From Psammoneis japonica (lineage: Eukaryota), in contig QPGO01000164.1 of the NCBI GenBank assembly GCA_008632985.1, positions 1 through 64,000 on the forward strand: a DNA stretch of 64,000 bases, given 5' to 3'. Of the stretch, positions 5,145 to 31,582 are shown piece by piece. The position numbers and the translations under genes are program-made. The first letter of the stretch is position 1; the number at the start of each line of letters is the position of its first letter. The notes under the pieces are model-generated. The model saw only the letters and a list, made by a program, of their open reading frames with translations, made no database searches and was not told where the DNA came from.

Positions 5145-5563
5145 ACTGCAATTAAGGGGAGTCATCATTTGCCACTTTTTTGACTTAAATTTGACCAAAC
5201 AGCTTGTGATTTGTGTGATTTTTCTTGAATTTCACTGTGCTTCTTAGTGGTGAAAACATCAAGCCACAAGTCTGCGAAGGAGGTGGTCTGTCTGTCAACT
5301 CTTGTCAGTTTTATGTCCGTTGTGTGTCAAAGGTCACACACCATGAATCAAATGTTTGTGGACGGACCACTGCATTTTGGAGCCATGCCGACATTGCTGC
5401 CATTGCCATGTTTTGATCATGGCACCTGAAGTTCTTGTTTTTGTGCACAGTCGGAGGTGAATGCAAACAATTTTTGCACTCAAAAACAAACACTGCAAAC
5501 ACTCTTGCTCAAATGCCATGGCAATTCTGGATAAATGCGGGGATGACCCCCCTCAATTGCAGT
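5145..5563. mobile_element. MITE-like element with about 22-bp inverted ends
   Basis: 5145-5166 actgcaattaaggggagtcatc vs revcomp of 5542-5563 actgcaattgaggggggtcatc (20/22 match). No coding capacity. Confidence 0.5.
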
Positions 5564-7205
5564 TGTCAATCAATTGCAGCACACCCACCCATTCCCCAAT
5601 GCAAAGAAATGTGCAACTTGTTCAAAGTGCAACAATGGCGAAGGAGACACACCACCACACGAGTGTCCTCGAAATCATTTTGGCAAGGAAAAAATGTGAA
5701 CGGAAGATGGCCAGACCACTGTCATTCTCTCAACAACATTGGACACTGTCAATGATCCACGTGCATCCAGCATTGCACCTTTTTGGAGTTTTGTGGGGGT
5801 CTTCATGAAATCAACAAACTCCTGCAGACAATGTTTCTAGCCAACAGCAGGAAAGCGGCAACAAACAGAACATCAAACAGCAAGCCAAGTGTGGGCAAAC
5901 CTGGAAAACTTTTCAAGATCATCAAGGTGTTGGCACTCCAACTTGGAACAGTGTCAAGAATTTCAGTTTGACAGAGGGCATTGAAAACATCACCCTGCTT
6001 GCTTGGATGGGATGAGTGCACCCAAGGCTGAGTTCTGCAGCTGTGTGGCCCCTCTCCTGCCATTTCTTTCTCCAGCAGATTTCTCGAGGAGGAAGAGGGC
6101 TGGTCAGCAAGCTCGTTGATCATCATTTGTTTGTCCACTTTCTCAATGGCTGCAATCAAGCTCACAGTGGAGACAAAACCACAGCAAGGCCTTGGAAGAG
6201 CTGGAGTGGGTCATCCTTGGATTGGCCATCCTGCAAATCAGAGAGAGGATTTGACTGTTTTTGCATCTCTCTCTTTTCACCCCTGTCAACAACAAGAAGC
6301 TTGGACATTGCAACAAACATGCTTTCTTGTTTTGAAGCATGGACAAAACAAAAGCGAGACCACCCAGGTGAAGGGGGCTGCACCAGCAACAATGACCCCA
6401 CATTCAGAGTTTTTCTGCGAGCATGAGTTTTAACAAATGTGTGTGTTTTTTGTTTTTTCTGTTGCAGCATGCACACAAAAGAGCAACAGATTTGCAAAAC
6501 TCTTGGCGCAGCAACCTGTGTGGCCATCTGAGCAAACACTTGATGAGCAGCCCTGTTGACAACACAAGTCATGAGTTGGCAAAGTTTCAAGAGCCAGAGC
6601 TCTGTCATGTCAAACAACTTTGATGGGTCAAACAATGGGTTGGGCGAGTTGAGGAGATTTGTTTGCTGTTTGTTGTTGATTGTGATGGAAACAGAGAGAG
6701 AGAGAGAGAGAGACAATTGTGACAACAGCCAGAATGAAAATGAGAAGGAAGCTCCTGCTCCTCATTGTCACAACATGAGCAGCTGCACGACTCTTGCTGA
6801 TGTTTCTGCACACTTGCAAAAGAAGCTTGGCGCCAAAGCAATGTGCAGGAAAACCCAGTGTCCACCATTGGCCCTGCCAACTGTGGCCAACAAGGACCCT
6901 GTAATGTGGTTGCGAATGTGGGTTTGACTGTGCTAGCCTTAACGGCAGATGGCCATCACAGCATTGAGAACAGGACAGTGCTGTAGATAGATAAAAGAAT
7001 AGAACACTCTAGCTAGTGGTGGGTAGAGAGCAATGGAGAGTAGATAGAACCACACCTCGTCCCGCGTCTGTCCATTTGTCCGCTCTCCACTGGTGTTCCC
7101 CTGCTCGCTGACTCAATCCAAGAAATTCCAATTTCGTAACTTTCCGCTTTTTGCTTGTGACAATGAGTTCTTCAGGGAAAACACTCTCACCATAGAGACC
7201 GTCAT

Positions 7206-10979: not shown

Positions 10980-11445
10980 TGAAGAGTGCCATTTGCAAAA
11001 TGTCAGATCAAGAACTGTGGGAGCACAGTTGAGCCAAAGGAGTTGCTTTCAAAGGACATCATTGATGGCCGTGTGACACCGAAAATGAAGCCAAAGGCGG
11101 TCAAGCAGATGCGGCCTGGACACGAGCCGCATCCGCTTCAAAACTTTGGGTCCAACTTGAGAAGCCTCAGAAAAATTTTTAAAGACTCATCAAGACCGGG
11201 CTGATGTGGACAGTGCAGCACTTGCTCATGACCATTGCTTGCATCCAATTGCTGCAACATCATCGCATGGCTGCCCCAGGTGGGAGGGATCAGAGGCCGA
11301 GAAGTTCGTCCAGCAAGACATTGAGGATGACAGCATTTTGGATGTGAAACCCGTGACACTTTGCCAAACCAGACCAGAATGTCAAGCTTTTCCTCTTCGT
11401 ACATTCCAAGACCACACTCATCAAGCAAAATGGGCAAAATGACTT
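10980..11445 (+). pseudogene. Degenerate two-repeat ORF of unknown function, possibly transposon-associated
   Basis: Two internally similar segments (KDIIDG...RPGHEPHPLQNF and QDIEDD...LCQTRPECQAFPLRTF) interrupted by a stop/frameshift. His/Cys occupy positions consistent with former Tyr. Confidence 0.4.
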
Positions 11446-12639
11446 GGTTGCATTGGCTTAATTGCTACAAAAAGAAAAAGCAGGCAAAGTGGAACGGGCA
11501 CAGGTGATTTGCATTGGTTGTCATCTCTGGATGTCAATTGTTTAGATTGGCTCAAATCTTGAACAAAACACTTGCCATGCAGCACAATGGCCAGCACCAG
11601 TCATTCTGTCCTTGGCTTGCTTGTCGCTCATTTTAGATCTCACCAACAAGTTGCACCTTGATCGTTGCCGTTTGTTCTGCACTGTCACCATGCCATGCAG
11701 CCAGTGTGATGCAGTGCACTGTTGAGCCAATTGATTGATTGTTTGAGACCACACGCAGTGTTGTCACAATTGTGCCCACAACACCACGACAATTTTGCAG
11801 GTTTTGGCAATTGCTGAAACATGGCAGGTTTCAGCAGAATCTGGCAAAACACGCAGCAGGTTTCAGCAATTGCTCAAACATGCATTTTTGGTGATGCACG
11901 GCTGGAAGGTGCTGTTAAATGTCAGGGGTCTGTGGTGATGAAGGGGTGGGTTGGCAGGAATGTGTGGTGAGAGGGTGGTGCAGAGTGTGCTGAGTGATGG
12001 AGAGAAAAAAGACCGGCCAAGGGTTTTGACAGATGGTCAAGAGGAGGAGTTGTCATTGACAATTGGCTTGGCGTGCAGAGAGGTGGTTGGAGAGAGTGAT
12101 GCCAAAGTCAAGGTTGAAGATTTGTGAGGTGCGCAAAGAAGTTAGGGTGTTGCGGCATGATGGTGGGAGGTGCCAAAGTGGTTTGGTGACACTTGTTGCT
12201 TCCAGGCATTGCTTGAGTGGGTGAGGAAGTTGAAGGGGAGCAGGAGTGAGTTTTTGAAGGCAGAGAAGGAAGCTCAGGAGTTGGAGAGGGAAAATCAACC
12301 AGCCCAAGGTGGTTTGGGAGGAAGAAGAGAGGGATGGAGGAGGATGTTGTGGCGGAGACACCAAAAAAGAAAACGTGGAAGTGGCGTGGATGCCACCCAG
12401 GCAATTGAAGACAAAAGGAGGAGGAAAGTCATGCTTGATTGACAGTGTTGACAATGTTGGAGCAGCAGGCGGATGACACAGTTTGGCCAAGGAGCCAGGA
12501 GGTGGGGGAGCTGGTGGTGTTGTTTGATGTCTGAAGAACATGCCCAGGCAAACTAGAAATTGTGATGCATTTCAAGTGTGGAGGAGGAGACACATTCACC
12601 AAATTGCCTCTTTCTGATGTTGGCAATCACTCACATGTT

Positions 12640-15310
12640 CATGGCCTGAGAATTTGCTGTGGAGCTTGAACATGGAGTTCTGCAGGAGGCCCAATGTTGC
12701 ACACAGTCATGAGGGGGGCGGAATGCATCACAAAGAAGAAAAGAAGTGTGAGTCTTTGTCATTGTCAAACAGCAAGGATGATGACCTCAACAATGTTTTT
12801 GTAAAATTCAAGGTGCACAAAGGTGTCTGCAATTGCAATGGGGTGGCTAACACAGATCTGGGAGATGAGCTCCTGACCAAGAGTAAAAAGAAAAAGGCAG
12901 TGCAAGCTGATGGTGTGGAGAGCCTCAAGGACACCAACAACAAGGGCAAGAAGTTGTGCCAGTTGCTCACAAAATCCTTCACCAAGTTGATCTGAGCCCT
13001 GCCTGACAATGTGCACAAATGTGATCAAGTCATGCAAGAACAAAAAAGTGGGTCAAGGATTTTGGTGCACAAGATCAAGAGCACCTGAAGCACTGCTCTG
13101 AACAGAGTGAGTGGATGACTGCCAAATGCACTTCAAGAAGAGCTGAACTGGAGCCAGGTGGCTTTAAGAAAGCTTTGTTTCACTTCAATGAGCCAGAAAA
13201 TTTCAACACCAAAATTTGGACAGATTGATGACATTCATCACCTGGATGAGTTGCAGTTGACAATGTGTGTGTGTGTGAAAAGGTCCCCGATAATGAAAAA
13301 TGGAAGGCTTTCAAGTTTGAGTGTGCCACAAGGATGACACCACAGAGAACATGTTGCACAGTGCCTTCAAGCAGCACTGTTAGAAGAAGTGGGAGACAAG
13401 TGTGGGAAGTGCAGCCAGAAGGGATGCAAGGTGCTGCAGTTTGGTCTGAACAAAAAGACTGCCATGTCAAAAAAACTCAAAGGCAACTGTTGGCATTGCA
13501 ACAAGCCTAGACACCAGGCAAGAAAAAGACAAAGGAGAACAAGGATGACAAGGAAGCCAGTGATGTCACCACAGCAGCAGTGCTTGACTTTCTCAACTTG
13601 GTCAAGGAATGCAAAGGCTTGCTTGTAGTCTCCTTCCAGGCAAGAAAAAGACAAAGGAGAACAAGGATGACAAGAAAGCCAGTGATGTCACCCCAGCAGC
13701 AGTGCTTGACTTTCTCAACTTGGTCAAGGAATGCAAAGACTTGCTTGCAGTCTCCTTCTTTGACAAGCTAGAGGACAATGATGAAGAACCCAAGAAGAAA
13801 CTGAACAGGCTCTTTGTCCTTGTGCAAGTAGAGCAAGATGTCAGACAACAAAGATGGTGGTGGCATGAGCAAGGTCCTTGTGGGCTGATGTGGGAAGAAG
13901 AGGACAGTGCCCCACCTCAGGCAATTTGATGTGACTCAAATGGCAAATCAGAAGACAAGTCTGATGATGACTTGGTCAACAAGTTCTGTGAGATGCAGAA
14001 GTTGCATGACAAGGACAACAACAATGGTGCCAATGCTGATCCATTGCCAGAAGGGTAAGTGTGTGTCCAAGGTGGTGACAAAAAAGACAGTGCCCAAAAT
14101 TTGAATTGTCATTTTGACTCAGAAAGCAAGTTAGAAGACATGTGTGGCAACCCAATGACAGATTTGAGGAAATGCTGACATGTCAGGCAGTTGGAACAAG
14201 ACAGCATCAAGCTGCTTCTGCACTCTGGATCAACAGCACATGCAAGCCAACAGGACTTCTAAAGGCATGAGGAACCTTGAGGAAGTCAACAAGACTGTGA
14301 AGGACATGCACATCGGGACTTCAGTGGCACAATTTGAAAGTGTTCATTCTTTTGAGTGTTGAGAAGTGGATGGGGCAGTGGCTGTCATGGAGATGTGTGA
14401 CCAGCCATTTTCCCCCTGCAACACAGCAAGTCTCACAAAGTTGGTTGAGAAAAATTGCACCCTGAGAGTGCCAAGGCAGACCCCAAATGTGCCATCATTC
14501 TGAGCGTCCTGATGGCACAAAATTGATTTTTGAAAAATCTGTAAAGACAGCCTCTTTCACATGGAGGTGAAGTGTTTGAGGCATGCTGTGGAAACAAGTG
14601 TGGGTGTGTCAACCAGATGGAAAGAGGTGCACAAAAGGACTTGTCAAAGAAAGTCCATGTGAGTTGCACGCACATTTCATTGAACCACATGGGTGAGTGC
14701 ACAATGAAAATGGCGGCAGCAGATTTTGGTTGGAAATTGAAAGGAGTGCTGCTGAAGACCTGCAAGTGAGTTTTGCATTGGAACAAAGGCTGCAGCAAAG
14801 GGAATGGCAAAGACCAGCAAAAAAGAAAGCAGCAAGACTTAGCCAATGGCTTCTGCTTGGACATGACAAGGCTGTTGGAATTTCATGGGTCAACCACCAA
14901 TCTGCATCAATCTCACCAACTCCAAAACTCACCAAATGGATCACAAACACATCAATGCTGTTGCTGCATCACCATGTCATTCTGGTGCAGAAGCTAAAAA
15001 GTGAGCACAAAACACACATTCATGGAGAATTTGCAAACAGCTTCTTTTTTGTGTGTTTTCAAAAACAGCACATGGTTGTGGAAGCTGGATGTGATTCAAA
15101 TTTTTCAAGCACAGTTGTGTTCAAACAAGAGGTTGCCAGCAATGGCAACAGCATGTTTTGGCAGAGAAAGAGTGTTGCACCCACCAAAAAGACAAAAGAG
15201 CAGCTGTTTTGCAAAACAAGTGCAGGGACACAGTCCTTGCAGAATGGGGAGAGCAAAGCAAAATTCATGAGCTTTCAGAGCATGATGTCAAAAAGACAGG
15301 CAAGCTAAGA
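12640..15310 (+). mobile_element. Degenerate Ty1/copia LTR retrotransposon (gag knuckle, protease, pre-integrase/integrase relics)
   Basis: Zinc knuckle GNCWHCNKPRH (about 13482-13515), protease-like LLLHSGSTAH (about 14212-14241, cf. LLDSGST.H), and GAG-pre-integrase-like H...NHMGE...A..FGWKLKG...TC (14670-14765), in copia order. No intact ORF and no confirmed LTR pair. Confidence 0.65.
13515..13760 (+). repeat. Direct duplication of about 121 bp inside the copia relic
   Basis: ccaggcaagaaaaagacaaaggagaacaaggatgacaa...gcaaag.cttgcttg.agtctccttc occurs at about 13515 and 13636. Confidence 0.9.
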
Positions 15311-16458
15311 CAGCTGGCAGCATGCATTGGATCGACAGGAAGTGAGAAGTGAGAGGGAAAGAGAAAGTGTGTGTGACCACTTTTGGACTCCCTCAACTAA
15401 ATGTGCATTGGTGCATGCCTGTCTGTCTCACTGGGTGTGAGTTTGCCCCACACCTCAACAGGCAGGCGCCTCTCCAGCTCCAGCCAATCCAAACCCTGCC
15501 CCCGCCTGTTGGAATTCACCCTTCCAGTGACCACTTCAGAGCCACTTCAGTCCTCTGAGGTCTGATCATGAGGGCAAAATAAACAAGCTTGTTGTCACAA
15601 TGCTTTCTAAGAGTTGAAAAAGAACAGCAATGATGGCGCTTCTCCGGCAGCCCCCACATCGTGCTTCGTGCAGAGCACATGAGTGCTGATGCATGAGTCT
15701 TCTTTGCACCATTGCATTTGGGCACTTGAGCTTTTAATCTTTTTTTGAACACATTTGCCTGCTCCTGCTGACCAATGATTTGATGCTTCTCTGGACGGCT
15801 GTGTCTGTGTGAAAACAGGCAGATGAAGACAACAGAATTGATTTTCTCGCCACATTGGCCCATTGTCACTGCCACAGCAATTCTGGCTATCTTCAGACTG
15901 TGCACTCCTCAACTTTTGTGTGAGCTTGAGTCTGCAAACGATTTGGAAGTCACCAAATGCAATTGGAGGTTTCAGAGTCGTCCCTGATTTTGATGTCGTC
16001 GCTCTTTTGGATTCACTCTGTTCCTCTCCAGACTTGTCTTTGGATTCCACCATTTTCTCTGGCGCAAGGATCGTGAAGATTCAAGATGATCCACCTTGAG
16101 GACAACCTTCAAAAGCAGCCATGGTTGAGGCTAAGGTCAATCTTCCGACTCGTCAGTGGCGCATCAGGCAGATTTGGGCGATGCATGCCACTGCAGGATT
16201 GGCGATGCGAGCTCTCGCTCCGGCATCTTTCATGCAGGCCTAACTCCAACCCCATGCAAAGCTGCCTCTGCAATGATGTAGCTCATAACCCATCTAAACA
16301 AACAAGCAAAAATCCAACAACAAATTTCGCGACCGACCGCCGATGGCCGACCCGCACCTCTCATCACAACCAGGCTCCTTCTCTCGAACCAAGCCATCTC
16401 TCTCTATCCTGAAGAAGACGTGACGCATGTATAAAAGCTGCTTTGGCATGGCGCAGAG

Positions 16459-19400
16459 ATGGCGCCACTGCCGCTGTCTGATGAGGAAGAAGGTGTGAAC
16501 GTGTTGGAGCTCGGCGGGGAGATCCGTCCGCATCGTGGTCTCGCCACCCTCAGAGAGATCTTTGCACGGACAGCAAGATGAGTGCCCGACAACGTAGCCC
16601 TTGAAGATGCGACGGGAAAGCAGAAGCTCTCCTGCGGCGAACTTGATTGTCTCGCCGACTCGTTGGCCGCCAGGCTGCGATCGCGTTACGGCGTCGGACC
16701 CGAATCCCCCCTCGTCGGCTTGGCCGCCGAACGGACGATCGGCTGTTTGGCATCTCTGCTGGCCGTTCTAAAAGCCGGCGGGGCCTACGTCCCTCTCGGT
16801 TTGCGACTTCCCGATGCTCGCATCCGAACCGTGCTGGAAGATGTTTCGCCGTCGGTGGTTCTGTGCAGCAAGGCCTGTGCCGAGCGTTTTTCCAAACTGG
16901 GTGTTGAACAGCTGTGTGGTCGATGACGACGATCTCATCCTCCGCCGTGATTCGCCGACAGTAGAGATAGAGGAAACGGTCGTAGGAGACAACCTTGCTT
17001 GCGTGATTTTTACATCGGGCACTGCCGGCAAGCCCAAGGGCGTCATGGTTCCAAACTTGGCTGTGGCCCATTACATCGATTCGATGCGGGCCATCCTCAA
17101 CCCTGGGCCCGACGAGCGGGTCATCCAAATCATGGAGCTTGCCTTTGATTCCTGCATTTTTGACATTTGGATGGCGTGGGCATTTGGTGGGACGGCGGTT
17201 CTTTGTGAGAAGTGGACGGCCCTTGAAGGCTTTGGCGAGTTTATTCGCAAACGCAACATTGCAACCCTTGGATGCACTCCGACACAGCTTGGCGCAGTGT
17301 CACCTCAGGATGTTCCCAATTTGCGCGTGGTCGCCATTGGTGGTGAGGCCGTCCCTCCCCCGTTGATCAGAGAATGGGCACAGCACCCTTGCTGTCACAT
17401 CTACAATCAATGTGGACCTGCAGAAGCAACGGCAACTGTGACATCTATCCAATGTGCTCCTGACATGAAACATCCAAAGTCAATTGGGTTTGCAAATCCT
17501 GGCAGGGCAAAGCTTTACATCCTTGATTCCGATGGGGAACCTGTGAAACCCAGTGTTCCGGGCGAGCTCTGCACAGCGGGCCCACAGGTGGCCCGTGGGT
17601 GTTTCAACTTGCCAGATCTTACGGCAAAGAAATTCGTTAGAAACAGATTCTCAAATTCAGCCGAAATGCCAGTCCTCTACAAGACCGGCGACCGCTGCCG
17701 CTGGCTTCCTGATGGCAGCATTGAGCATCTTGGAAGGCTGGATGCACAGGTGAAACTGCAAGGGTTTCGGATTGAGCTGGGTGAAATTGAAACAAAGTCA
17801 CTCGAAAGGAGGGATGTTCGAGCTTGTGCTGTTGCTCTTCGCCACCGAAAGGAAGGCTCTCCATTTCTTTGTGCATGCTTGGTCCCAGAGAGAACGGGCA
17901 CAAGGCTAGATGCGGGCAGTCTGCGATCCCATCTGGCATCTTCTCTTCCGGATTACATGGTCCCTGCTGCATTTGTAGAGCTTGTTACGATGCCGATCGA
18001 CTCCTCTGGCAAAACAGACAGATCTCGCCTCCCAGATCACTCCTTGGCTTCGACGGTTGGGTCACATGATCCAAAGAATCATCAGTCACCGCTTTACAAG
18101 AAACTGCTGCAGATTTTTGCTGATGTGCTGCATCTCGAGCCGCAAGATGTTGGGCAGGATGCTGACTTTTTCATGCTTGGAGGTCAATCTCTTTCAGCCG
18201 CGAGGCTCCTCGGCAAAGTGAGACAAGAATTTGCGACCCGGGTCCGGTTTGCTGAGTTTTTTGCTGATCCCACTCTCAGTGATGTTTTGTCATGCATCGT
18301 GGATGCTGGAGCGACAGACAACATGGACATTGAGGTCTGCCCACGCAGTCAGAGAGTTGGAAAACAGCTTCCTCTCTCCTCGGCACAAGCACGAATGTAT
18401 TTCCTCCATCTGCTTGATCCCAGTTCACCGGTTTACCATGCATCCGCAGTTTTTGATCTGGGAAATGGTGTCGTGAATCATTCTCGCCTTGAAAACGCAT
18501 TCCGAACCGTCATCAGTCGCCATGAGATCCTCCGCTCTTCTTATGGTCATTCTTCAGAAGGAACCTTTCAAGTTGTCCAAGATGACTTTTTGTTTCCCCT
18601 TCGTCAGCTTGACGTGCGCAACATGGAACACGGTGACAGGCAGCTGCGCATGCAGAAAGCCATGACAGACATCACTTCAGCTCCTTTCCACCTCGAAGAT
18701 TCAAGTGCTTTGCCCATCCGAGCACTGCTTATTTGGCTTGAAGAGCAACGCTCGCAGCTTGTCATTGCTGCACACCACATTGCCATCGACGGTCTGTCAT
18801 GGGACATTTTACACACGGAGCTGTCAGCTGCCTGTGCAAATCAACGCTTGCCACTTCTCACAATTCAATTTGGCGACTTCTGCCTTTGGGAGGCGAAGTG
18901 TCGGTGGAGTGCGGCCTGCCGAGAACTGCTAGATTGCTGGAGGGAGGAGCTTGGGGAGAATCCCGAACCTCTGCGCCTTCCCACTGACAGGCCCAGACCT
19001 GGTCTCCACTCGAGTGAAGGTGGGAGCTTCACGAAACATTTTCATGGGATTGCGTCTCCACTCCGTGCAGCTGCAGCTGCACATGCGACGACTCCTTTCT
19101 CCATCTTGCTCTCTGCATGTTTCATTTTGCTCCATCGCCTCACCGGCCAAAAAGAAATCATTGCAGGTGTCCTGTCATCAGGACGATCTCACCCGAAAAC
19201 AGAATCCCTCATTGGCATGTTTGTCAACACGCTGCCAATCAAAGCACAACTCGGCACGAATCTCACATTTTCGGAGCTCGTTGCGAAGGTGAAATGGGTG
19301 ACTGCCATGGCATTTGATCATCAAGATGTCGCGTTGGAGGATCTTGTGAAGAGGCTGATTCATTCAAGATTGCGGGGACAGACCCCACTTGTTCAAACGA

Positions 19401-22400
19401 TGCTGACTTTCGACGAATGTGATGAAAACGGTGCTCCAGGCCCAGTGTTTGATGGGCTGAAAGTGGCGGAGCTCGAAGTGGAGGAGACCAAGACAGCGAT
19501 GTTTGATTTTTCGATCGGCTTCAGTCTGAGATCTGGTGATCACTTGCTCGTTGAAGCCGAGTTTGCCACAGATCTGCTCGATCGTTCAACAGTTGGGCGG
19601 GCGATTGATCAACTTGAAAGCATCCTGCGGGATGCGATCCTTGCAGAATCGAGCATCATTGGAAAGCGTGAGGAACTGGAATTGGTTCAAAGAGATTGTC
19701 CGGGTCGCAACAGCATCACTGTATTCCAAAGATCTGCCGAGGATTTTTTGGAACCCAGGACAACCGAGGAAGTCAGGCTAGCAGCGATGTTCTGCAAACT
19801 GCTGGACCTCCCACGGGTGGACATGCGGGACAGTTTCTTTGCACTGGGAGGAGACTCACTCCTAAGCTTTCAGCTGGTTGCCTTGCCCGGAGCCTTGGGT
19901 GCTGTCTTAATGTGACTTCTGTGATGGAATTTGAGACAGTGGAGAAGCTCGCTTCCTTTCTGCTTTCTGCAGCCTCTTTTGGGCCTGATGTGGAACCACC
20001 TGCACAAAGGGCCAAATGTCGGCTGGTTGACCTGACCCCAATCCAGAGATGGTTTTTCGGTGAGCACTTTCCAGCGCCTTCACACTGCAACCAGTCAAGG
20101 ATGTTTCTGGTTCGGAATGATGTCGATGAGGCAGCTCTCCAGGCTACACTCCTGTCACTTGTCATCCATCATGACGCTCTGCGCTTCTCTCATGAAATAA
20201 AAGGTCGTCACGCGAGGCAGATCCAGCATGCTGATGATCTGGCGTCAAGTTTTCTCACATTCCGCATCGAAGACAATTTAAAGGAAAGCTTTGAAGGGCC
20301 GCTGATTGAAATCGAACGCGAAACCGAACGAGATCAATCATCGCTTGATTTGGAGAACGGACCCACAATGGCAGCAACACTGTTCATGAGGCCATCACCT
20401 GATCCACCCCCACTCTCGATCGTTGTTCATCACCTTGTCATTGATGGGTCAGCTGGAGAGTGATTGTGGATGACCTCAACATGGCCTGCTCCCAACTTGC
20501 GGCCGGGGGACCGGCGAGCCTCCCGGCAAAATCGCACTCCTTTGCACAGTGGACATCTGCGCCACAGAAGCATTCGAAATCCTGTTCCTTGTCAAATGAG
20601 CTTGCGCGCTGGCACTGCGCAGAGGCATCTCCTTTTAAGTTGCCTTTGCGAGCTTCGCGGGACAGGCACAAGAGGATCGAGCCCAGAGAGGATTGGATGT
20701 CATCTTTGGTCGAATGTGCGAACATCGAAGGGCTGCTGTCGACCACAGCCGTCAAAGATCTAGTGGTCGCGGCGCTTGCCTGGAGTCTGGTGGAGCCATC
20801 TCGTGAAAGCAGAGATGTTTGCATCATCGTTGAAGGTCGTGGCCAAGAATCGGGCATCATCGCCTCTGGGTTCGACCTCACTGGGACTGTTGGTTGGTTC
20901 ACGTCCATCTTTCCTGCACGCTTTCAGTTTGATGGGGTCACAGACGCTGGAAATGTGTTCCGCACAGCCTTGGAACAGCTTCGAGAAATTCCAAACAATG
21001 GCATCGGCTGTGGAATTTTCAAGCATCCGCGCTGTGGATGTTCCTCTCTTTCCAATCATCATGCTTCTCAGGTTGCCCTCAATTATCTGGGGCGCTCCTG
21101 GACCCAGGCTAGTGCATTGGATGGCATGGACTTGACGACGCTGGATTCTTTAGACTCCTCAGACCTCATGCTTTCCTCATTGGATGGCATTCCCACCTCA
21201 GATTGGGATCCACGCAACCAGTCGGACGATTCGATTCTCGATGTATCATGTCACATGATGGGATCACGTCTCGAGATGAGTTGGCAGTTTCGTTCTGACC
21301 TGCTCTCCCGTTGTTACGTGAACGAGCTCGCCGAACGCTTTTCCACCAACGTCACCGCCATGATCGCGGCGGTCTCCAATGGCGGACCCCGAGCGCCGGG
21401 AATTTTTGTAGCGAGATTTGGAAAGAAGATTGAAGACGCAATCAACGCCGTCTGGGCAAAGCACCGCCACCACGATAACTTCCACGGATTGTCCGTCAGC
21501 GCCGTTGTTGATGGTGAGATCGTGTTTGCTGGAGGCCATGGCTTCCGTGACGCTGAGCGCAGAGTCCCAATTGATCCGCACACTGTATTTTCACTCGGAT
21601 CGGCGGGGAAGCCCTTCGTTTCTCTTCTGGGGGCCATCTTGGTTGACGAAGGAGTCGTCGACTTGGACGCTCCTCTTGAACCGACGCTGTCCGAAGCAAA
21701 GATATCACTTCCGGAGATCTATGGACAGATGACGCTCCGCCAACTGTTTTCCATGACAGCCGGGATTCCCTATGTAGAAACTCATGTTGAAGAAACCATG
21801 GACGATCCATTCGAAATTTGCAGGTCAGCTATTGAAATTGTTCACAAGCCCGGATCCTGTTACTTTTATAGCAATTTCAGCTACGCTCTTGCGGGTTATA
21901 TCCTTACGTTGGCAGCTGGGTGTGAAGAGGATTCTATCTGTTTTGAAAACCTCCCCGAACAATTTCTTGGGTTGCTCGAAGAAAAGGTTTTCACCGCAGT
22001 GGGAATGGAAGATGCCAAACCCGAGGGATTTCAGTTTCTCTCCAAGAATGGTGCAATGTTGGGATCTGATCACGTGAGAGGTGCGGTAGGCAGCGCTGCC
22101 ATGCTGCCGTCAGGTCCAGTAAAGGCAAGCGTAACCGATACAGCTCGTTTTCTCATCACCGAGTTCCAACGAGGACTTTCACCGGCAGGGTGTCGCGTCG
22201 CTTCGGCAAGTCGCGTCTCTGAACGCTTCAATGTCTCCCAGAGTCAGGGGTCCGACTGGGGAATGGGATGGTTTCGTGACAGGCATCACGGCTTCCTTTA
22301 CATTTCAGGCCAGTGGGCGGATACAGTTAGCGGGCTCAAAGTAGATCCTGTCAGTGGGTTTGGCTTGTCCTATGCTGTTTCCGTTTGCGACAGTACGCAG

Positions 22401-22493
22401 ATACAGTTCATAGAGCTGGACATGGACCGGCTATTTATTGACCTCCTAGGGGAGGTGCGGCGTCAAACTCCAAACTCCAGATGTGGCAATTAG
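16459..22493 (+). pseudogene. Non-ribosomal peptide synthetase A-T-C-T-E-serine beta-lactamase/PBP-like; partly hypermutated, probably inactive
   Basis: A domain (LKAGGAYVPL, FTSGTAGKPKGV, YKTGD, GFRIELGEIE, LPDYMVP); T (FFMLGGQSL); C (HHIAIDG); T (FFALGGDSL); E (LTPIQRWF, HHLVIDG[V]SW, EGRGQE, TVGWFT); serine hydrolase (GSAGK = SxxK, YSN). In-frame TGA at 16579-16581; frame breaks near 16915, 19885 and 20447. Confidence 0.88.
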
Positions 22494-22824
22494 AGAGTCT
22501 GCAAATCACGGCAAATTCTGATTACATGATCACACTGTTTAGCATTCCGGCAGCGACACTGAAAAATGCAATAACGGACGAGTAAATGGCCGATAGGCGA
22601 CGGATTTCGAGTCTTGTTCTTTCAAAACTCTACCTTTTTGTCATCACCATTAACTGTTATGGATTTGTTGGTCGAGGTCTTCAATCTTTGAGTAAACTTC
22701 TTGTATCTCTCTGTATATCGGTGTAACATCTTGACCAAGCTCACGCGCCAACTTTGCCACTTCCTTTTTACATTCAAGTCTTTTCTAAAACAGATTTAGT
22801 TCCTTTTCAAGACTAGTAGACCTT

Positions 22825-23617
22825 TTGCTTTCTGGCAACACATTTCGGTCCAAAGAAAACGAGGACCCTGATTTGCAGGCTTGCCGCGACTCCGTGACGA
22901 CCAAACCCAGTCGGAATATTTACGGTGCATGGACCTTTTGTGAGAGTGTTGTGCGTGATGGTCGCCCCTCTATCATCTCGTTTGGTACTGGCACAAATAT
23001 GGATTGGGAGATGATCATGATTGAAGAGTATAGTGCGACGATATGCACACGATCCAACACCCAAGTCGATTGCTTATGTTGATACTCAAAAGCAAAAATA
23101 CAAAGCTCTATCAACGGACCGGTTTGTGTTCAATAGCGTGGGGATTGCTTATGTTGAGACTCAAAAGCAAAAATACAAAGCTCTATCAACGGACCGGTTT
23201 GTGTTCAATAGCGTGGGGATTGGTGCAATCGACAATGACTATGTCACCATGAATCTACCGAAAAACACAAACTTTGTATCTGGACGAGGTGGCTCGAGGG
23301 AGGCGGGGAGTACGGGAAGCATTCAGATCAAACTGGTGACGTTGCCGGCCACACTGAAGCTACACAGTTTGGATGCTGTAGACATTATCAAGTGGGATGT
23401 GGAAGGCGTCGAGTTTGATGTTCTTGATATTCTTTTGGATTCCGGATTTGGTGTAACGGCGAGACTATTTTTGGTGGAATGGCATGGTCCATTTTTTGAT
23501 AACGAGAGTCTCCAGCAAAAAGCCATGCAAAAGCTCGAAGCTGCTGGTTTTGTCAAAATTCATACCTCCGACAAGGCGGAGGAAATGTTTTTCAATACCC
23601 GTTTCAACATAAAATAA
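22825..23617 (+). CDS. FkbM/Methyltransf_22-like SAM-dependent methyltransferase (frame break near 23043; 5' exon uncertain)
   Basis: IISFGTGTNMDWE, A(H)DPTP, VDIIKWDVEGVEFDVL and LVEWHG are typical of this family. Confidence 0.7.
23068..23222 (+). repeat. In-frame 75-bp tandem duplication (IAYV[D/E]TQKQKYKALSTDRFVFNSVG x2)
   Basis: Copies start at 23068 and 23143; one mismatch seen. Confidence 0.95.
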
Positions 23618-24289
23618 AGTGGCATCATAAAGTACTCTGGGATTTTCTGCTGTTCAACTACGAGCAGTTTACAGACACACAAAAAAAACCTCCGGTCTCA
23701 TGAATCATGAAACCAAAGCCTCGCTTGGCCTGGTCGCCTCACCTTTTAGTCTCGTGTACCCTCAAGTGACGGGTTGAGGATTGAGGATCAACATAAAACA
23801 AGACGAGGATTGTCTCCTTTCAGAGCACATCGATCCGTTCATTACCGGTACTACAGTATCACTGTTCTCGGCATATCATGGCAATCGGTGTTTCTTTCTG
23901 CTCCCTCCATGTGGTTGCATTGGCCGTTTAGGATCTCAATCCTAGTTGCCTGCAAATGTCAGTTAACGATCGTCACTTGAATCATTTGGGCGACGACACA
24001 GACTTAATCACCATGACAGTAGTATGAGAACGCTGCAAATTCAGACTAGTTGAACGCAGCTCTAAATGTTAATTCTTAAGTGCGAAGTCATTCCTTAAGA
24101 TGAGTGTGTGTGCAGTGTAATGCACTGTTGTCTTGAGCCATTGTGTGCCAATGCATCAGGCACATGGCCAAAACCAAAACTACAGCAAGAGCATCACCTT
24201 CATGCTGTCAAATTCAACTGCCTCTTCCACATCATTAATTCAAGGTTACCACTTGAACTTGCATGAGAGCCAAGAAACCAACAGCAATG

Positions 24290-25860
24290 CAGGGGGCACA
24301 ACGGTGGTTGCCTTGAGTGTGCAAGTTTGTTGGGACATCCCAGGGCCCGTCCCCATGATGCATGGTGTTTTTTGTCCACTTGAGGGAAAACACCTTTGTG
24401 GCAGCAGGAGGTGTGGGCAATGCTGGGAGGGGGAGAGACCTTGGATCTTGGCAGGTCCTGGGGAACCTTGTGAAGGAGCGATGTCATGATGGCAGGTGTG
24501 GTTCTTGCTAAAAGGATGGCAATCCTTTGAGTGTGTGAGTTTGTTGGGCATTGGGGGTTTTGGAGTCATGCAGCAATTGGCTTGTTCACATGATGCATGG
24601 TGGTTTTTGTCCACTTTGAGGAGAAGCACCTTTTGCTTTTATGGCAGCAGGTGTTGGCAACGCTGTGAGGGGAGACCTTGGCAGGTCCGGCGGAGCCTTG
24701 TGAAGGAGCAATGTCATGAGGGTGGTGGGTGCAGTTGCACAAAAGGGTGGTGATCCTTGCCCAAAATCAAAAATCTTTTTCAAAAATTGTCATGCTGCGA
24801 ACAGGACACTGAGACTTTGACATGCTTCTCACCATTGAAAATCTCAAGCATGAAAATGTGAGTGCATTGGAGTGCACATCACAACAAAGGCATTAAAAGC
24901 CATGAAAAGCACAAACTTGCCTTTCCCAAATGGTTGGTTCATGGATCTTCTGGGTCACAAACATGTGGTTGCACACACACACACACAAAGTGGAACAACC
25001 TCTGTGGGTGTGCACTCTTCAAGATTTCAACCAAGGTTCTTTCTTCTTGTCATCATTCTTTCTTCTTTCCTTTTGATTGAGGAGAGGACAGGAAATGACA
25101 AAATTTACTGCCTGGAACTGTGTCAAAGCCAAGACTGGCAACATCACTTTGAATTGTCATTGTCCACCACCAAGGACCTTCTCTTCTGCTTCTTGCCTGG
25201 CTTCTTTGAGAAACCTTGCCGGATTTCTCTTGTCCATCAGCCCCACACATCATTCCCAACCATGCAATGCACAATGGTGTCTGGCCCCTTTGCCAGCTGA
25301 TTCTTTCATGTGGTTTTGTGTTGAGGAGCAAATGATTTGGGAAAAGGGACCAGAGGAGCAGCAGTGCTCTCATCCTGCTTGGCATCATCAGATTTTGGCA
25401 CTCCTTCTTGATCATCAGCTGGGGGCAATGGTGTTTCACCACAAGAAATGTGCACATCAAGGCTCATGCTGAGATCCAAGAAGGAATCTTGGTCTGCAGC
25501 ATCACATTCTGGCAAGGTCAACCAGCAATGCTTCAAAAAATGAGCTCCTTGAAGAACATGTCATGCAACTCAATTGTCATCAGATGGACAATGTGCCCCT
25601 TTGGATTGCATCACATGACATTTGCAAAAATGAGCTTTTGGCATTCACCATCAAATCACCAAGGGTGCTGCACTTGCCAAGAAGACAACAAGAGCATGCA
25701 GTGCCTGAGTCCATTGGGTGAGCAAAGTGGAACAACCTCTGTGGTTGTGGCACTCTTCTGGATTTCAACCAAGGTTCTTTCTTCTTGTCATCATTCACTC
25801 TTCTTTCCTTTGGATTGGGGAGAGGACAGGAAATGACAAAATGCATTGTCTGGGAATGTG
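24290..25860. repeat. Degenerate dispersed direct repeats
   Basis: About 24355-24530 resembles about 24590-24760. About 24985-25110 resembles about 25722-25850 (caaagtggaacaacctctgtgg...gagaggacaggaaatgacaaaat). Confidence 0.75.
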
Positions 25861-26384
25861 TGGCTTAGATGCTTCAAATTTTTTGAGCTTCTACCCTCCA
25901 CAATTGTGGGACACTCATCTTTGCTTCTTCTTGCTGCACACTGTCGCAAATGTCCACATCTGCAGTGCCTTCCACCTTCCATGGCCATTTTGATGACTGT
26001 CACTTCTTTCTTTTGTCCCAAGCAATGACACCAGTTTTAAAGCTCCTGCAAGCTGTTTTCAGGGTTGTCCAATGCACTGACAGCCTTCAGCCTGACAGCA
26101 ATCTGTCAAGAGTTGAATTGAGCAGTTTGCTGGTTGATGCAAATGAACGTCTCTGTGGCAAAAGTCAACTGGAGCATTGCTGATTTCGGCATGTGATGAC
26201 AGGAAACATGTGATGTGGGGCAAGTTCATGTTGTTCATGTTCCTTCAGACCCACACCTTTCAGCAAGTCAGACGGACAGAAGTGAAAGGGGCAAGTTGTT
26301 GTTGCAATGTTTAAAACAAGCCCTGGGGGAGGGGGGGGGGGGGGGGGGCACTGACCACATGTTGTGCTGGGTTTTGTGCTTGCC

Positions 26385-28625
26385 AGGTGGTCAGTGAGTG
26401 CCAGCTTGGGTGGTTGATGCAAGGTTGGGATGGCCCCACATGTCAAGATGTGAGGACACAAATGAACTGGGCAGCAGGTCAGGAGGTGCACATGCACATG
26501 AGACAAACAAGCCATCCAGAAATGAGATGCAAATGAAACAGCAGTTGACGTGTGCACCATTGCCTCATGGCACTCATGCATGGAGGATTGCATTGTGTTG
26601 TGGCAGCCAGAGCAGAAACAGCAGTTAACGTGTGTGCTGTTGCCTTGCAGCGCTCATTGCTCATGCATGGAGGATTGCATGACATTGTGGCAACCAGTGC
26701 AAAGTTTTGTCCTTTCTGCTCAAGAGCCATTGCACAAGGTCCCCCACAGCCTGAGAACACACAAACAAGTTGCTCCCAGATTTGCTGGGCACAGTCACAT
26801 GCAAACTCCAAACCCAACCCGGGGGTCCCCCAAAAAGCACACATGTCATTGCAAACAAACTTGAAGCTGCTCACACTCTCACAAGCAAAAATGTCCAGAC
26901 TGCAACATTTGCAACCTTCTTGCATTCAGTGGGTGGTCAGTGAGTGTGGCTTGGGGGGTTGACATGAGGTGAGGATGGCCACACATGTTTTCAGAAATGA
27001 GGACACAAACAAACTGAAGGGAGTTGGTCAGGTGCGAGCGCATGTGAGACAAATGAAACATGCAGAAATGCTGACACAAGTGAAACAGCAGTTGTTGTGT
27101 GCACCATTGCTGTTGCCACACAGTGCTTCTCATGCCGGTGGCATGGAAAATTAACCACAAAATTTGTGGTCAACCAACACAAAATGAGAAACAGCTGGTG
27201 TTTGTGCGCAGCAATGCCAGCAGCAATGAGGTCTGGTCATTGTTGCTTGCACGCATGTTGGGGGCAGGTCCAATCTGTCCAATGACTGCCCACCGACCAA
27301 CAAGATTGTCCACTGCCACACAACCCGACTCATCCCAACTGCTGCGTGCACTGCCAACACATCAGCTTGAAGACAGAGATCACATTTTGCGGTGCAAACA
27401 TGATGAGTCTTGGCGGCGCACTCTTCTCCAGGGCTTGCAGAAGAAGTGTGACGACACACACACACACACACAAATCTCCATCACTCTGGAATCTGTTGCT
27501 GCATGCTCTTGAGGGATGGTTTCATTGTGAGTTGCTTTGTTCTATGAACATCCATCAGAGTGCTGTGGTGGTGCTTCAAGCTCAAAACGAAATTGGTTGG
27601 AGACACATTTTCAATGGGCGTTTCTCCTTGTTGTGGAGTGAAGCTCAAGCACCACACTTGTTGTCTGCAGGTTTGCATCACTCCTTGTTGGACAAGGAAA
27701 GGCGCTTAGATTGGGCTGCCACAATTGGCAGTTTTGTGTGGTCTCAGTGGTGGGAACTCTGGGACAGTCTCACAACGACGCCGTGCATGGGCACGATTCG
27801 GAAACAAGAAAGTCCTCAAAGCACCAAGATGCTGAGGCAAAAGTGCAAGCTATCCATTCAAAAGCATGTGACTGTTTGGCTTGCAATCGATCTGAGTTGC
27901 TTGATTCAGTGTAGGAGCATCTCACTCATTTGACCTGTGGATTGCGCAATTGGTTGGCTGTGGTCAGGCCAATGTTCAAGTGTCCAGCATCCACGAAGCC
28001 CAGCGTCTAGCAGTGAGGGGCACTTGCACCATTGCAAGTTATCTTGGTGTGGCATCACCTCAGGGCAATGCCAATTCAGGCCAGTTGTTGTGTGCTCCTG
28101 CCGCACCCAGTGCACTGGGAGTGTGGGTTAGCTTGTTGCTGGAGTTGCAGGGTGGAAGCGCAGCAGCACTTAAAATTAGACTTTTGGTTTTGTTTTGTCC
28201 AATGACCACCCAAAGCAGAAAAAATTCATTTGCACTTGCCACACGCAAACACAAAAAAGTGGCCAACATGCCGTTGTGGTCAACATTCTGTGCCACTGGC
28301 ATGTGTGGAGGATTGCACAACATTTTGATGGTGGCTGGTGCAAAGTTTTGTCGCTTTCTTCCACACAAGAGTCATTGCACAAGGTCCCAACCCCCTGATG
28401 ACACACAAACAAGTCAACATCAAGTTCAAGGCATGCAGTCACTTGCAAACTCCACACCCAACCCGGGTGTTGCACAAAAAGAACGTGTTCCCCTGCGAAG
28501 CAACACACAAAGCTGCTCACACACTTGCGCACACTCACAAGCAAAAATGTCCAGACCACAACATTTGAAACCTTCATTGAAACCTTCATAAAACTTTTAT
28601 GTCACTTGACCCGGGTGGTCAGTGA
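26385..28625. repeat. Tandem units of about 545 bp starting GGTGGTCAGTGA; second unit interrupted by a LINE fragment
   Basis: Unit starts at about 26386, 26932 and 28613. 26660-26920 aligns to 28305-28575, and 26386-26570 aligns to 26932-27110. Confidence 0.75.
27150..28260 (+). mobile_element. Degenerate 3' fragment of a non-LTR retrotransposon (Ambal-like)
   Basis: Cys/His motif relic (..EDRDHILRC) and QNEIGWRHIFNGRFS.LW..AQ...W....WELW..HNDAVHG, resembling diatom LINE C-termini as I recall them. A-rich end near 28250. Confidence 0.55.
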
Positions 28626-28888: not shown

Positions 28889-31582
28889 TTGCGCAATACC
28901 GGTATGAAGTCAACCATGATGAATGAGGACGATGATTCATCCTCGGTGTCTGACAATCCAAGTCTCGCGGTGGCGGAAGCCATGGTGGTTGCTCGTGGCG
29001 ATAGAGAAATGAGTTCCATGGCGAAGATAAGTTGTTGGACGGGATCCTACAACAAGGACGGCTTCCAGAACGAAAAGGAGGTATTTTGGAGACGCCGGCT
29101 TGCAATGCAGGAAGACAAAGAGCAGACGAAGAAACCGCATGATTCAAACAACGATGGAGATGCAAAATCAAAAGAATTGACGGATTCTGACAGTACGCTG
29201 AATGAAAATGAAAAGAACGGAAGCAAGAATGCGGCGTCGGAGCTGAGACTTGCTTCAACGGCTGCAGAAGAAGAAGATGTTCACGAATTCCCTTCTGGAG
29301 ACGGTGACGATGAAGATGGTGGAAACAATGACAACATGGTTCCTCTCTCTCCAAAAGAGAAGAGAGCGTCACCGGAGGAGACTGTGGAAGAAACGGACGA
29401 GATGCAGAAGCAAGATCAAGAGCAGCGTCGGCCGCCAGAACCCACTTCTCTTGTTGATGGTAAAGAAAATGAAAGTTCCGTGGAAAACGATTTGAGGGAC
29501 ACGGAAGAATTGGTAACACCACTCAGTGATCCAGAAGAGGAGGGGCACGAAAAAGAAGAAGAAGAAGAAGAGAAAGACAATGAAGAAATCGTTGCTCTGA
29601 AAGCTCGTATTGATTCACTAGAAGGGATTCGAGAGGAGTTGCAAAAGCGCATTGAGCTACAAAACGATCAAATTGAGAAACTGACTCAATCCAATGAGGA
29701 AATGGAATCAAGGATGTTGCAGGAAAAGGAGCTTCATCGGGAAGACCTGGAGCAAACAAGACAAGAACTGTTGGAAGGGGCGAAACGTCGGATTGACGAT
29801 ATGGAGGCACAGATGGCACAGCGTATTGCGGATGCAGAGAAACGGGCCAGAAAGGAAGAAAGGAAGCAAACCGACGACGATGATTCATCAGTGGACACGC
29901 ACAATTTCAAGACTCCAGAGTCTCATCAGGTATCTCTAAAGCCGATAAGCAGAAAGAAGAAAAGGAAAGAAACGGAACCGCACAAGACACCAACCAAGAA
30001 GATGTTCTCTCCTGAGGAAGACGTTCGCCGTGCTCATCGCACCCGATTCCCACCGTTGGAATGTGGGAAAAACGAGCATCCCGTGTTCGAAGCTAGTGAC
30101 GAAGAGGGAGACTTGAGTGAAGCCATTGATGAGACAGAGGCACAAATGGCACATCGCTTTCCGGAGGCAGAGGAACGGGTCAGAGAGGAAGCAAGGAAGC
30201 AAACCGACGACGACGATTCAACAGTGGGCACGCACGATCTGAAGACTGCAGAGTCTCATCAGGCATCTCTAAAGCCGAAAAGTAGAAAGAAGAAAAGGAA
30301 AAAAATGGCACCACGCAAGACACCAACCAAGAAGATGTTCTCTCCTGAGGAAGGCGTTCGCTGTTCTCGTCGCACCCGATGTCCACCAGTGGAGTATTGG
30401 AAAAATGAGCGTCCCGTGTTCGAAGCTAATGACGAAGAGGGAGAGCTGGGTGAAGCCATTGACGAGACAGAGGCACAAATGGCACATCGCTTTCCGGAGG
30501 CAGAGGAACTGGTCAGAGAGGAAGCAAGGAAGCAAACCGACGACGATGATTCATCAGTGGGCACGCACGATTTGAAGACTGCAGAGTCTCATCAGATATC
30601 TCTAAAGCCGAAAAGCAGAAAGAGGAAAAGGAAAAAAATGGCACCACACAAGACACCAACCAAGAAGATGTTCTCTCCTGAGGAAGGCGTTCGCTGTTCT
30701 CGTCGCACCCGATGTCCACCGGTGGAGTATTGGAAAAATGAGCGTCCCGTGTTCGAAGCTAATGACGAAGAGGGAGAGCTGGGTGAAGCCATTGACGAGA
30801 CGGAAGCACAAATGGCACATCGCTTTCCGGAGGCAGAGGAACGGGCCAGAGAGGAAGCGAGGAATCAAACCGACGACGACGATTCAACAGTGGGCACGCA
30901 CGATCTGAAGACTGCAGAGTCTCATCAGATATCTCTAAAGCCGAAAAGCAGAAAGAGGAAAAGGAAAAAAATGGCACCACACAAGACACCAACCAAGAAG
31001 ATGTTCTCTCCTGAGGAAGGCGTTCGCTGTTCTCGTCGCACCCGATGTCCACCGGTGGAGTATTGGAAGAATGAGCGTCCCGTGTTCGAAGCTAATGACG
31101 AAGAGGGAGAGCTGGGTGAGGCCATTGACGACACAGTGCCACAAATGGTACAGCGTATTGCGGATGCAGAGAAACGGGCCAGAAAGGGAGCGAGGAATCA
31201 AACTGACGATGGTGAGTTATCAGTGGACACGCACGATTTGAAGATTCCAGAGTCTCCATCTCCAAAGCCAAAAAGCAGAAAGAAGAAAAGGAAAGAAACG
31301 GAACGTCACAAGACACCAACCAAAAAGAGGACGGCTTCAGGTTCGTTATCATCACCTCCTGGATTTCACGTGGTTAAAGTCTTCCCCGTCCCGGAACACG
31401 TTCTAATCTCTCCTGAGGAAGGGGTTCGTCAATCTCGTCGCGTCCGATTCCCACCGTTGAAGTATTGGGAAAATGAGCATCTCGTGTTCGAAGCTAATGA
31501 CGAAGAGGGAGAGTTGGGTAAAGCCATGGGTAACATGCCCGTGGTGCGTGGTGTAATGTATCGGCAAGAAAAGACAAAGTGA
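28889..31582 (+). CDS. Acidic/coiled-coil protein with five tandem units each carrying a CENP-C-motif-like sequence; start probably the Met at 28903
   Basis: Open 897-aa frame with normal TpA/CpG. Motif GVR.SRR.R.PP..YW.NE..VF occurs five times (first copy degenerate). No cupin domain seen. Confidence 0.75.
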   Translation: MRNTGMKSTMMNEDDDSSSVSDNPSLAVAEAMVVARGDREMSSMAKISCWTGSYNKDGFQNEKEVFWRRRLAMQEDKEQTKKPHDSNNDGDAKSKELTDSDSTLNENEKNGSKNAASELRLASTAAEEEDVHEFPSGDGDDEDGGNNDNMVPLSPKEKRASPEETVEETDEMQKQDQEQRRPPEPTSLVDGKENESSVENDLRDTEELVTPLSDPEEEGHEKEEEEEEKDNEEIVALKARIDSLEGIREELQKRIELQNDQIEKLTQSNEEMESRMLQEKELHREDLEQTRQELLEGAKRRIDDMEAQMAQRIADAEKRARKEERKQTDDDDSSVDTHNFKTPESHQVSLKPISRKKKRKETEPHKTPTKKMFSPEEDVRRAHRTRFPPLECGKNEHPVFEASDEEGDLSEAIDETEAQMAHRFPEAEERVREEARKQTDDDDSTVGTHDLKTAESHQASLKPKSRKKKRKKMAPRKTPTKKMFSPEEGVRCSRRTRCPPVEYWKNERPVFEANDEEGELGEAIDETEAQMAHRFPEAEELVREEARKQTDDDDSSVGTHDLKTAESHQISLKPKSRKRKRKKMAPHKTPTKKMFSPEEGVRCSRRTRCPPVEYWKNERPVFEANDEEGELGEAIDETEAQMAHRFPEAEERAREEARNQTDDDDSTVGTHDLKTAESHQISLKPKSRKRKRKKMAPHKTPTKKMFSPEEGVRCSRRTRCPPVEYWKNERPVFEANDEEGELGEAIDDTVPQMVQRIADAEKRARKGARNQTDDGELSVDTHDLKIPESPSPKPKSRKKKRKETERHKTPTKKRTASGSLSSPPGFHVVKVFPVPEHVLISPEEGVRQSRRVRFPPLKYWENEHLVFEANDEEGELGKAMGNMPVVRGVMYRQEKTK
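29800..31525 (+). repeat. 333-bp (111-aa) coding tandem repeat, 5 units
   Basis: gcacaaatggcacatcgctttccggaggcagagga recurs at about 30140, 30473 and 30806. Units 1 and 5 are more divergent; unit 5 has an insertion. Confidence 0.95.

Follow-up and report, generated by a model that had tools for sequence, protein, structure and literature searches.

A stretch of 64,000 nucleotides from the Psammoneis japonica contig QPGO01000164.1 (assembly GCA_008632985.1, positions 1 to 64,000; hereafter the window) carries on its forward strand, at 16459–22493, what reads as an interrupted gene for a nonribosomal peptide synthetase (NRPS) ending in a domain of the penicillin-binding protein (PBP) and serine beta-lactamase type. 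This locus raises the questions of whether a bacterial-style synthetase belongs to a diatom genome, whether the copy could still work, and what its unusual last domain would do. The reading that we prefer, with a probability of about 0.7, is that the locus is a diatom nuclear member of a small NRPS family, its domains following the order adenylation (A), thiolation (T), condensation (C), T, epimerisation (E) and PBP-like, inactivated here by mutation at TpA and CpG, and that the intact enzymes of the family may release their product in cis.

Domain order and relatives of the synthetase

Pfam analysis of the four long stop-to-stop frame pieces that encode this single former gene recovered AMP-binding, divided between two frames (4.1e-20 and 2.1e-41), AMP-binding_C, PP-binding in two stretches, a first Condensation domain (1.2e-77), a second Condensation-fold domain spread over two pieces (1.4e-18 and 3.3e-10) and a terminal Beta-lactamase domain (PF00144, 3e-37), with scores far above chance. 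The pieces were colinear, end to end, with residues 85–2087 of a 2090-amino acid (aa) relative, P0001. A first-pass annotation, made from the letters of the DNA, had proposed the order A-T-C-T-E-PBP; with all the proposed domains recovered in order by Pfam, and with the colinearity to P0001, this order was borne out.

The coding sequence begins with the ATG at 16459, and its N-terminal 40 residues (16459–16578) align with the N-termini of P0001 and of two further relatives, P0002 and P0003. The A domain (AMP-binding plus AMP-binding_C, 16585–18013), divided by a frameshift (J1), is followed by the first carrier, T1 (18101–18295, motif GGQSL), and by the C domain (18365–19642), in which HHIAIDG is present. 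The second carrier, T2 (19733–19945, motif GGDSLL), lies across a second frameshift (J2) and the E domain (20029–21368) across a third (J3). The PBP-like domain, a putative serine hydrolase of the class-C beta-lactamase fold, occupies 21402–22490 (PF00144 match at 21468–22373), and the stop codon, TAG, stands at 22491–22493. Since a single polypeptide contains A, T (peptidyl carrier protein, PCP) and C domains together with the core motifs, which were read in the relatives and partly in the window copy, the locus is assigned on sequence features as a modular type I NRPS.

The best Protein Data Bank (PDB) match of the C domain was the TycC PCP-C structure (2jgp, 2.7e-47), and its sequence suggests a C domain of the usual elongation type. 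For the second Condensation-fold domain the top PDB match was the TycA E domain (2xhg, 3.2e-21), GrsA (5isw) was also listed, and 10/10 matches of the C-terminal 318 residues were NRPS chains; the score against TIGR01720 was 1.2e-13, under the model cutoff. In the relatives this domain carries PIQRWFF, HHLVVDEVSW (in the form HHxxxD), EGHGRE, RTVGWFT, GIGYG and FNYLGR, which we take to be the classical E motifs of NRPSs. The PDB matches led by TycA and GrsA E domains, and the GGDSL carrier standing before the domain, agree with its earlier assignment as an NRPS epimerisation domain, which is retained on this sequence evidence.

The relatives were found by searching with the E-PBP piece for proteins of greater length, and come from Logan, ENA and JGI environmental assemblies. 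P0001, P0002 (2007 aa, in a cluster of 43 members) and P0003 (2001 aa) are intact and have the same Pfam set, which is also that of P0004 (1327 aa), a sequence beginning inside the C domain. Identity to the window copy is 54–57% for P0001–P0003 and 45–57% for P0001–P0004. With NCBIfam the full-length relatives gave generic NRPS models only. A further protein, P0376, is a 1396-aa open reading frame (ORF) on a 463-kb NCBI/ENA contig with the architecture A-T-E-PBP-like, lacking T1-C and having a carrier of the T2 type. A 157-aa fragment, P0136, is identical to P0376 over most of its length and diverges at the end, and the genome of P0376 may also hold a broken second copy, represented by this fragment.

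TpA mutation and frame breaks in the Psammoneis copy

From the A to the E domain the gene lies in a TpA-depleted, hypermutated tract (16450–21400, the edges, drawn from TA counts, being approximate) in which CpG is mostly kept (observed/expected ratio, o/e, of 0.7–0.8 across the gene). In successive 1-kb bins from 17 to 21 kb the TA o/e was 0.24, 0.12, 0.07 and 0.09, as against about 0.5–0.6 in neighbouring genes. Counted per 200 bp, TA amounted to about 1.5 between 16600 and 21000, where about 11 were expected (about 0.13 of expectation), and to 2–4 up to 21800, and was normal past there. In its TA level the NRPS resembles the silent DNA of the genome and not its genes. Elsewhere in the window, the tracts 3000–7000, 11000–16000, 24000–28000, 37000–41000, 46000–51000 and 53000–54000 have a TA o/e under about 0.1 and a CpG o/e mostly <0.3, in sharp contrast with the gene islands.

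For the comparison of Tyr residues, the window pieces, with X at the breaks, were aligned to P0001–P0003. At the 34 columns where Tyr is invariant in these three relatives, the window copy has 15 Tyr, 11 Cys, 5 His and 3 other residues; when each relative was taken in turn as the focal sequence, the control gave 0 changes of Tyr to Cys or His. The total number of Tyr residues is 21 in the window copy versus 51–57 in the relatives. The Tyr to Cys/His sites span 16633–21024, with an additional site at 21537 that is His in P0004 too, and from 21720 on Tyr is kept at 5/6 positions. P0109, the closest relative (71% identity), has Tyr at 3/3 such sites within its coverage.

Conserved columns are changed in the window copy at 207 of 1008 positions (59–141 in the other sequences), and 161 of these 207 would be restored by one base change. 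In the inferred spectrum A>G occurred after T in 22.2 of 30.2 cases and T>C before A in 13 of 21, and G>A occurred after C in 14 of 23 and C>T before G in 5 of 9.3; as reconstructed from the sequences, this is a spectrum of TpA>TpG/CpA changes plus CpG decay. Damage is seen in motifs A3 (TSGTTG to TSGTAG), A5 (NQYGPTE to NQCGPAE) and A8 (LRGFRIEL to LQGFRIEL) of the A domain and E4 (EGHGRE to EGRGQE) and E6 (GIGYG to GIGCG) of the E domain. The motifs of the PBP-like domain, both carrier serines and the HHxxxDG of the C domain survive.

The frame is interrupted by an in-frame TGA inside the A-domain N-terminus (16579–16581), in a column where the relatives have Arg, Ala or Leu; P0109 has Arg, which is compatible with a CGA>TGA change, and the gene itself ends in TAG. 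At J1 (16912–16916) two bases are lost in a tgtgtg run, the alignment to P0109 and P0001 being gapless. One base is missing at J2 (19880–19884), in the T2 helix LVALARS, and one at J3 (20446/20447), inside HHLV[IV]DEVSW. Introns at the frame breaks were ruled out, since the coding alignment is gapless across every junction and leaves no intron room.

Read evidence was obtained from one sample (runs X1–X3, Logan contigs), aligned to the window at 80% likeness. The contigs share 0.90 of sampled 31-mers with the window and contain two versions of the locus, a near-identical version A and a version B that is about 13% different, as exemplified by record 3 over 19602–20446 (114 differences and 10 gaps, some of the indels having lengths not divisible by three). 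Judged by the summed contig depth, which is not a copy number, version B, an allele or a paralogue, extends over roughly 16.5–21.4 kb only. The first-pass annotation had advised looking for an intact paralogue or allele. What came to light was this diverged version B; there is no second NRPS copy within the window, and a search for protein fragments of version B with a 1047-aa piece found no near-identical fragment.

At J2 both read-contig versions have one extra base, and at J3 a read contig has an extra A at 20446 (HHLVIDEVSW). Because the frame is restored at these two places, J2 and J3 must be put down to errors of the assembly or to differences between strains, and the frameshifts as such are weak evidence of decay, the mutation signature being the stronger. 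No J1 indel was found in read contigs of comparable depth among the table rows listed. In the same window, STT3 (42259–44993, reverse strand) lies in three ORF pieces, which may be due to introns or to frameshifts of the assembly such as J2 and J3, and which bear on the trust to be placed in the indels of this assembly. Among 14 listed substitutions between window and contigs (16372–20907), 10 are CpG<->TpG/CpA, in both directions, and 2 are TpA<->CpA; since most are of the CpG<->TpG/CpA kind, they look like real polymorphism at a decaying locus, not random error. The excess of this kind may mean that CpG sites of the locus are still decaying in the species, or may stem from the way in which methylated CpG is base-called.

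It could be argued that the gene is intact and functional, the stop and frameshifts being assembly errors and the Cys or His residues in place of Tyr ordinary lineage divergence. The frame restored by the read contigs at J2 and J3, the unharmed motifs of the beta-lactamase, carrier and C domains and the mostly retained CpG would all suit such a view. It is nevertheless improbable. Read contigs and window agree at about 99.7% identity, so that the Tyr losses are real sequence, and a change at 16/34 invariant Tyr positions is matched by none in the three controls; P0109 keeps its Tyr at the covered sites, five core motifs of the A and E domains are damaged, the TA level is that of silent DNA rather than of genes, and the contig rows listed hold no indel at J1.

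Inactivation has its own difficulties, which weigh against the reading that we prefer. Single TA reversals explain just 37/207 of the changes, and the window copy is the outgroup among the four full-length sequences, so that some excess of change is to be expected. The absence of J2 and J3 from the read contigs means that breakage may be overstated by assembly or strain; the TGA at 16579 and J1 are known from the assembled window. The intact relatives are proteins of environmental assemblies, whose hosts may or may not be diatoms, and the dead-copy reading is drawn from DNA sequence.

On balance, the window copy, which does not show the unbroken frame and conserved catalytic motifs of a functional gene, is probably a hypermutated and most likely dead gene. 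A TpA>TpG/CpA process, with CpG decay, would have acted over about 16.45–21.4 kb, converting about half of the conserved Tyr residues to Cys or His and degrading core A and E motifs, and the copy would have been further broken by the premature TGA and at least one frameshift. Repair of the frameshifts, which the first-pass annotation had advised, would not bring so mutated a gene back to function.

A comparable process is reported for Bigelowiella natans, in which TpA-restricted T/A>C/G hypermutation affects integrated foreign DNA (Mettrop et al., bioRxiv 10.64898/2026.01.13.699255). As presented there, transitions are confined to TpA and aimed at particular DNA, not at the whole genome, and the spectrum inferred here at one locus matches. 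Differences from that chlorarachniophyte are the diatom host, the target, which is a cellular-type biosynthetic gene, and the CpG decay that accompanies the TpA changes.

The PBP-like terminal domain

An open frame (20448–22490) runs from the E domain into the terminal domain, and the E-PBP fusion is also present in five relatives. The terminal domain is therefore not a separate gene, and the first of the refuting cases named in the first-pass annotation does not apply. Its catalytic motifs in the window copy are S-A-G-K and Y-S-N; SxxK and YxN are kept across the family, whose consensus has S-x-G-K around the serine (FSLGSAGKP) and Y-S-N. The third motif is [HY]-x-[ST]-G, its first position being His in the relatives and Tyr in the window copy, P0230 and P0231. 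Of the catalytic Ser, Lys, Asn and His of SurE-type enzymes, the first three have conserved counterparts here, and this His is a candidate for the fourth. A confident AlphaFold2 (AF2) model of the domain (pLDDT 90.2, pTM 0.91) has the class-C beta-lactamase/DD-peptidase fold, and this fold, with SxxK and YxN, places the domain in the PF00144 serine beta-lactamase-like superfamily. Atlas lookup returned generic bacterial beta-lactamase clusters only. The proteins of the family stop about 20 residues past the PBP fold, with no lipocalin domain and no membrane-anchor extension.

In a structure search of the model with VIA, SurE (6ksu) was the top match (Z 33.0, root-mean-square deviation 2.3, 303 residues aligned), tied with AmpC (Z 32.6), and the model aligned to residues 2–353 only of the 442-residue SurE chain. 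By phmmer against the PDB, SurE came 6th (2.1e-08), behind Pab87, LACTB and Flp among others, and ClbP (1.1e-4) was among the weakest matches. The family profile found Flp (5.4e-14), then the R61 DD-peptidase (2.5e-7), D-amino-acid amidase (5e-7), SurE (1.5e-6) and alkaline D-peptidase (1.7e-6). An AmpC-type resistance enzyme was ruled out because all the NCBIfam class C beta-lactamase models scored far under their cutoffs.

PBP-type thioesterases are treated in a 2024 review of macrocyclising thioesterases as stand-alone, trans-acting bacterial enzymes (PMC11735501). The SurE-type enzymes (SurE, PenA and Ulm16, of actinobacterial NRPS pathways) share with the present domain the beta-lactamase/PBP fold and the Ser-Lys and Asn motif set, and both are tied to an assembly line ending in T-E, which implies in either case an acyl donor with a D-configured C-terminal residue. 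The present domain differs in being fused in cis, in ending about 20 residues past the fold, in its eukaryotic setting, in its third motif, and in its standing in the sequence and structure matches, in which SurE ranks sixth and is tied with AmpC, respectively. By definition the domain falls outside the SurE-type PBP-type thioesterases, being fused and without a lipocalin-like domain, and SurE is only its 6th PDB sequence match. The domain may work like SurE although it stands outside the SurE family as defined.

The D-stereospecific peptidases and amidases (R61 DD-peptidase, D-amino-acid amidase, alkaline D-peptidase, Pab87 and ClbP) have the same fold, with SxxK and YxN, but are free, secreted or membrane-anchored enzymes with peptides or amides as substrates, and none is a synthetase domain acting on a carrier-bound thioester. 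ClbP-type enzymes consist of a periplasmic peptidase domain and C-terminal transmembrane helices. Assignment as a ClbP-type prodrug peptidase was rejected, the C-terminal transmembrane extension being absent and the phmmer match weak.

In NRPSs elsewhere the chain is released by a thioesterase (TE), reductase (R) or terminal C domain. None of these was found in the six family proteins scanned, in all of which the PBP-like domain stands directly after T-E. On account of this release-domain position, the conserved motifs and the profile matches to D-specific enzymes, we are slightly inclined to regard the PBP-fold domain as an in-cis, D-specific release domain. In the intact enzymes, the lone A domain, which has the Asp and Lys expected of an enzyme that activates alpha-amino acids, would load T1 and probably the A-less T2 as well; the C domain would form a dipeptidyl-S-T2 and the E domain would invert the thioester-proximal residue. 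The PBP-fold serine (SxxK, YxN) would then accept the D-configured acyl group, and release would follow by hydrolysis, or by head-to-tail aminolysis to give a diketopiperazine. The substrate, the iterative loading of T2 and the product, a D-residue dipeptide, are inferred.

A role in transfer or peptide cleavage is the main rival to release. The domain would then be a D-stereospecific peptidase or acyltransferase, serving ClbP-like prodrug cleavage, self-resistance or the handing over of the D-aminoacyl or D-peptidyl group to a separate acceptor. Its sequence neighbours are indeed peptidases (Pab87, LACTB, Flp, the DL-peptidase Lip3 and ClbP), the macrolactin acyltransferase 6kjp, of beta-lactamase fold, is among the fold matches, and P0376, an A-T-E-PBP protein without a C domain, suits transfer or the simple release of a single D-amino acid. 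We hold this rival to be unlikely, given the release position of the domain in 6/6 members, the lack in them of a TE, reductase or terminal C domain and of a membrane-anchor extension; moreover, even with transfer to an acceptor the chain would be released, via the same acyl-enzyme. Some caution toward release in cis is called for on two counts: it is inferred from position, motifs and fold matches, and SurE-like and AmpC-like folds are not separable in the VIA comparison. In sequence, SurE stands farther from the domain than do Pab87, LACTB and Flp.

A fusion of a similar kind is present in P0054, an NRPS of a Streptosporangiaceae metagenome-assembled genome with the order C-A-T-E-like-PF00144, in which, as here, an in-cis beta-lactamase-family domain follows a T and a Condensation-fold domain. 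Its PF00144 domain, which the family profile does not pick up, shows only 24% identity over 185 residues, so that the fusion is, from the sequences, probably independent of the present family. A metagenome scan with P0002 gave only NRPSs at about 26–37% identity; at two of its loci, L018 and L030, a separate PF00144 ORF, not specially SurE-like, follows the NRPS. No NRPS fusion was seen among the other 10 long relatives of the PBP domain scanned. The literature searched, mostly as titles and abstracts, held no description of a fused NRPS of the P0054 type, of an in-cis beta-lactamase-like NRPS domain or of such an NRPS in diatoms.

Nuclear setting, origin and implications

The other genes in the window encode a pseudouridine synthase, an M48 peptidase, an asparaginase, a leucine-rich repeat protein, a kinase, STT3 and an ArfGAP. 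For the STT3 exon, the best relatives that bear a name all come from diatoms (Seminavis, Cylindrotheca, Nitzschia and Thalassiosira included; 64–70% identity), and Atlas lookup likewise gave eukaryote STT3. Independent read contigs span the 5′ edge (15590–16572) and the 3′ edge (21148–22740) of the NRPS. Bacterial contamination or a chimeric join might be suspected from the intronless, bacterial-style NRPS and from its GC content (52–55%, as against 46–47% in the flanks). With diatom genes on either side and both gene ends bridged by reads, however, contamination and chimera were rejected as very improbable: the diatom setting was confirmed, no chimeric bacterial contig of the kind that the first-pass annotation had warned of was seen, and the NRPS sits in the diatom nuclear genome. 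The gene also bears the genome's own TpA/CpG mutation signature.

Its scarcity among prokaryotes speaks against contamination as well. In 185,579 prokaryote species genomes scanned with the two most conserved family motifs, only 6 loci with 25–30% identity were obtained. The PBP domain matched 27,246 of 1.84 billion representative proteins at E<=1e-3, but E<=1e-30 was reached by only 9, of which the first five are family members or fragments.

Some neighbouring features may be recorded. Directly downstream of the NRPS, an ORF at 23021–23614 (forward strand) with an FkbM-type methyltransferase domain (PF05050, 8.2e-07) and normal TA may belong to the same pathway or lie there by chance. A high-copy repeat at 22660–22850 abuts the 3′ end of the NRPS and is represented by short X2 contigs of depth about 500–2200 with many differences from the window. 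Farther on, at 28889–31579 (forward strand), there is an open frame of 897 aa with a weak match to the GCM motif (9.6e-07), in a region of strong purine skew (AT skew 0.23–0.24, GC skew 0.10–0.12).

A wider proposal, put forward tentatively and with more doubt than confidence, is that a diatom-lineage NRPS family has its own in-cis PBP-fold off-loading domain, independent of the actinobacterial SurE, and has been inactivated here by a TpA-directed mutator. If so, the family product would be a D-terminated dipeptide or diketopiperazine, and the A-T-E-PBP form would take an L-amino acid and release or transfer it in the D-form. The mutated TpA-poor tract and the stretch covered by version B have roughly the same limits, as would fit a duplication-sensing process like repeat-induced point mutation (RIP); under the same proposal this overlap would suggest that mutation in diatoms is targeted by the sensing of duplications, as in RIP, or of foreign DNA.

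PBP-type thioesterases are valued as peptide cyclases, according to the review cited above (PMC11735501). The compact in-cis family considered here (about 2000 aa, with one A domain, and intact in P0001–P0003) would offer a new and easily testable release logic, and might lead to a small diatom peptide containing a D-residue. New in the present work is a protein-anchored case of the TpA process in a former gene. Because the intact protein relatives fix the ancestral residues, the dead copy would serve as a site-by-site readout of diatom TpA>TpG/CpA and CpG mutation on a former gene.

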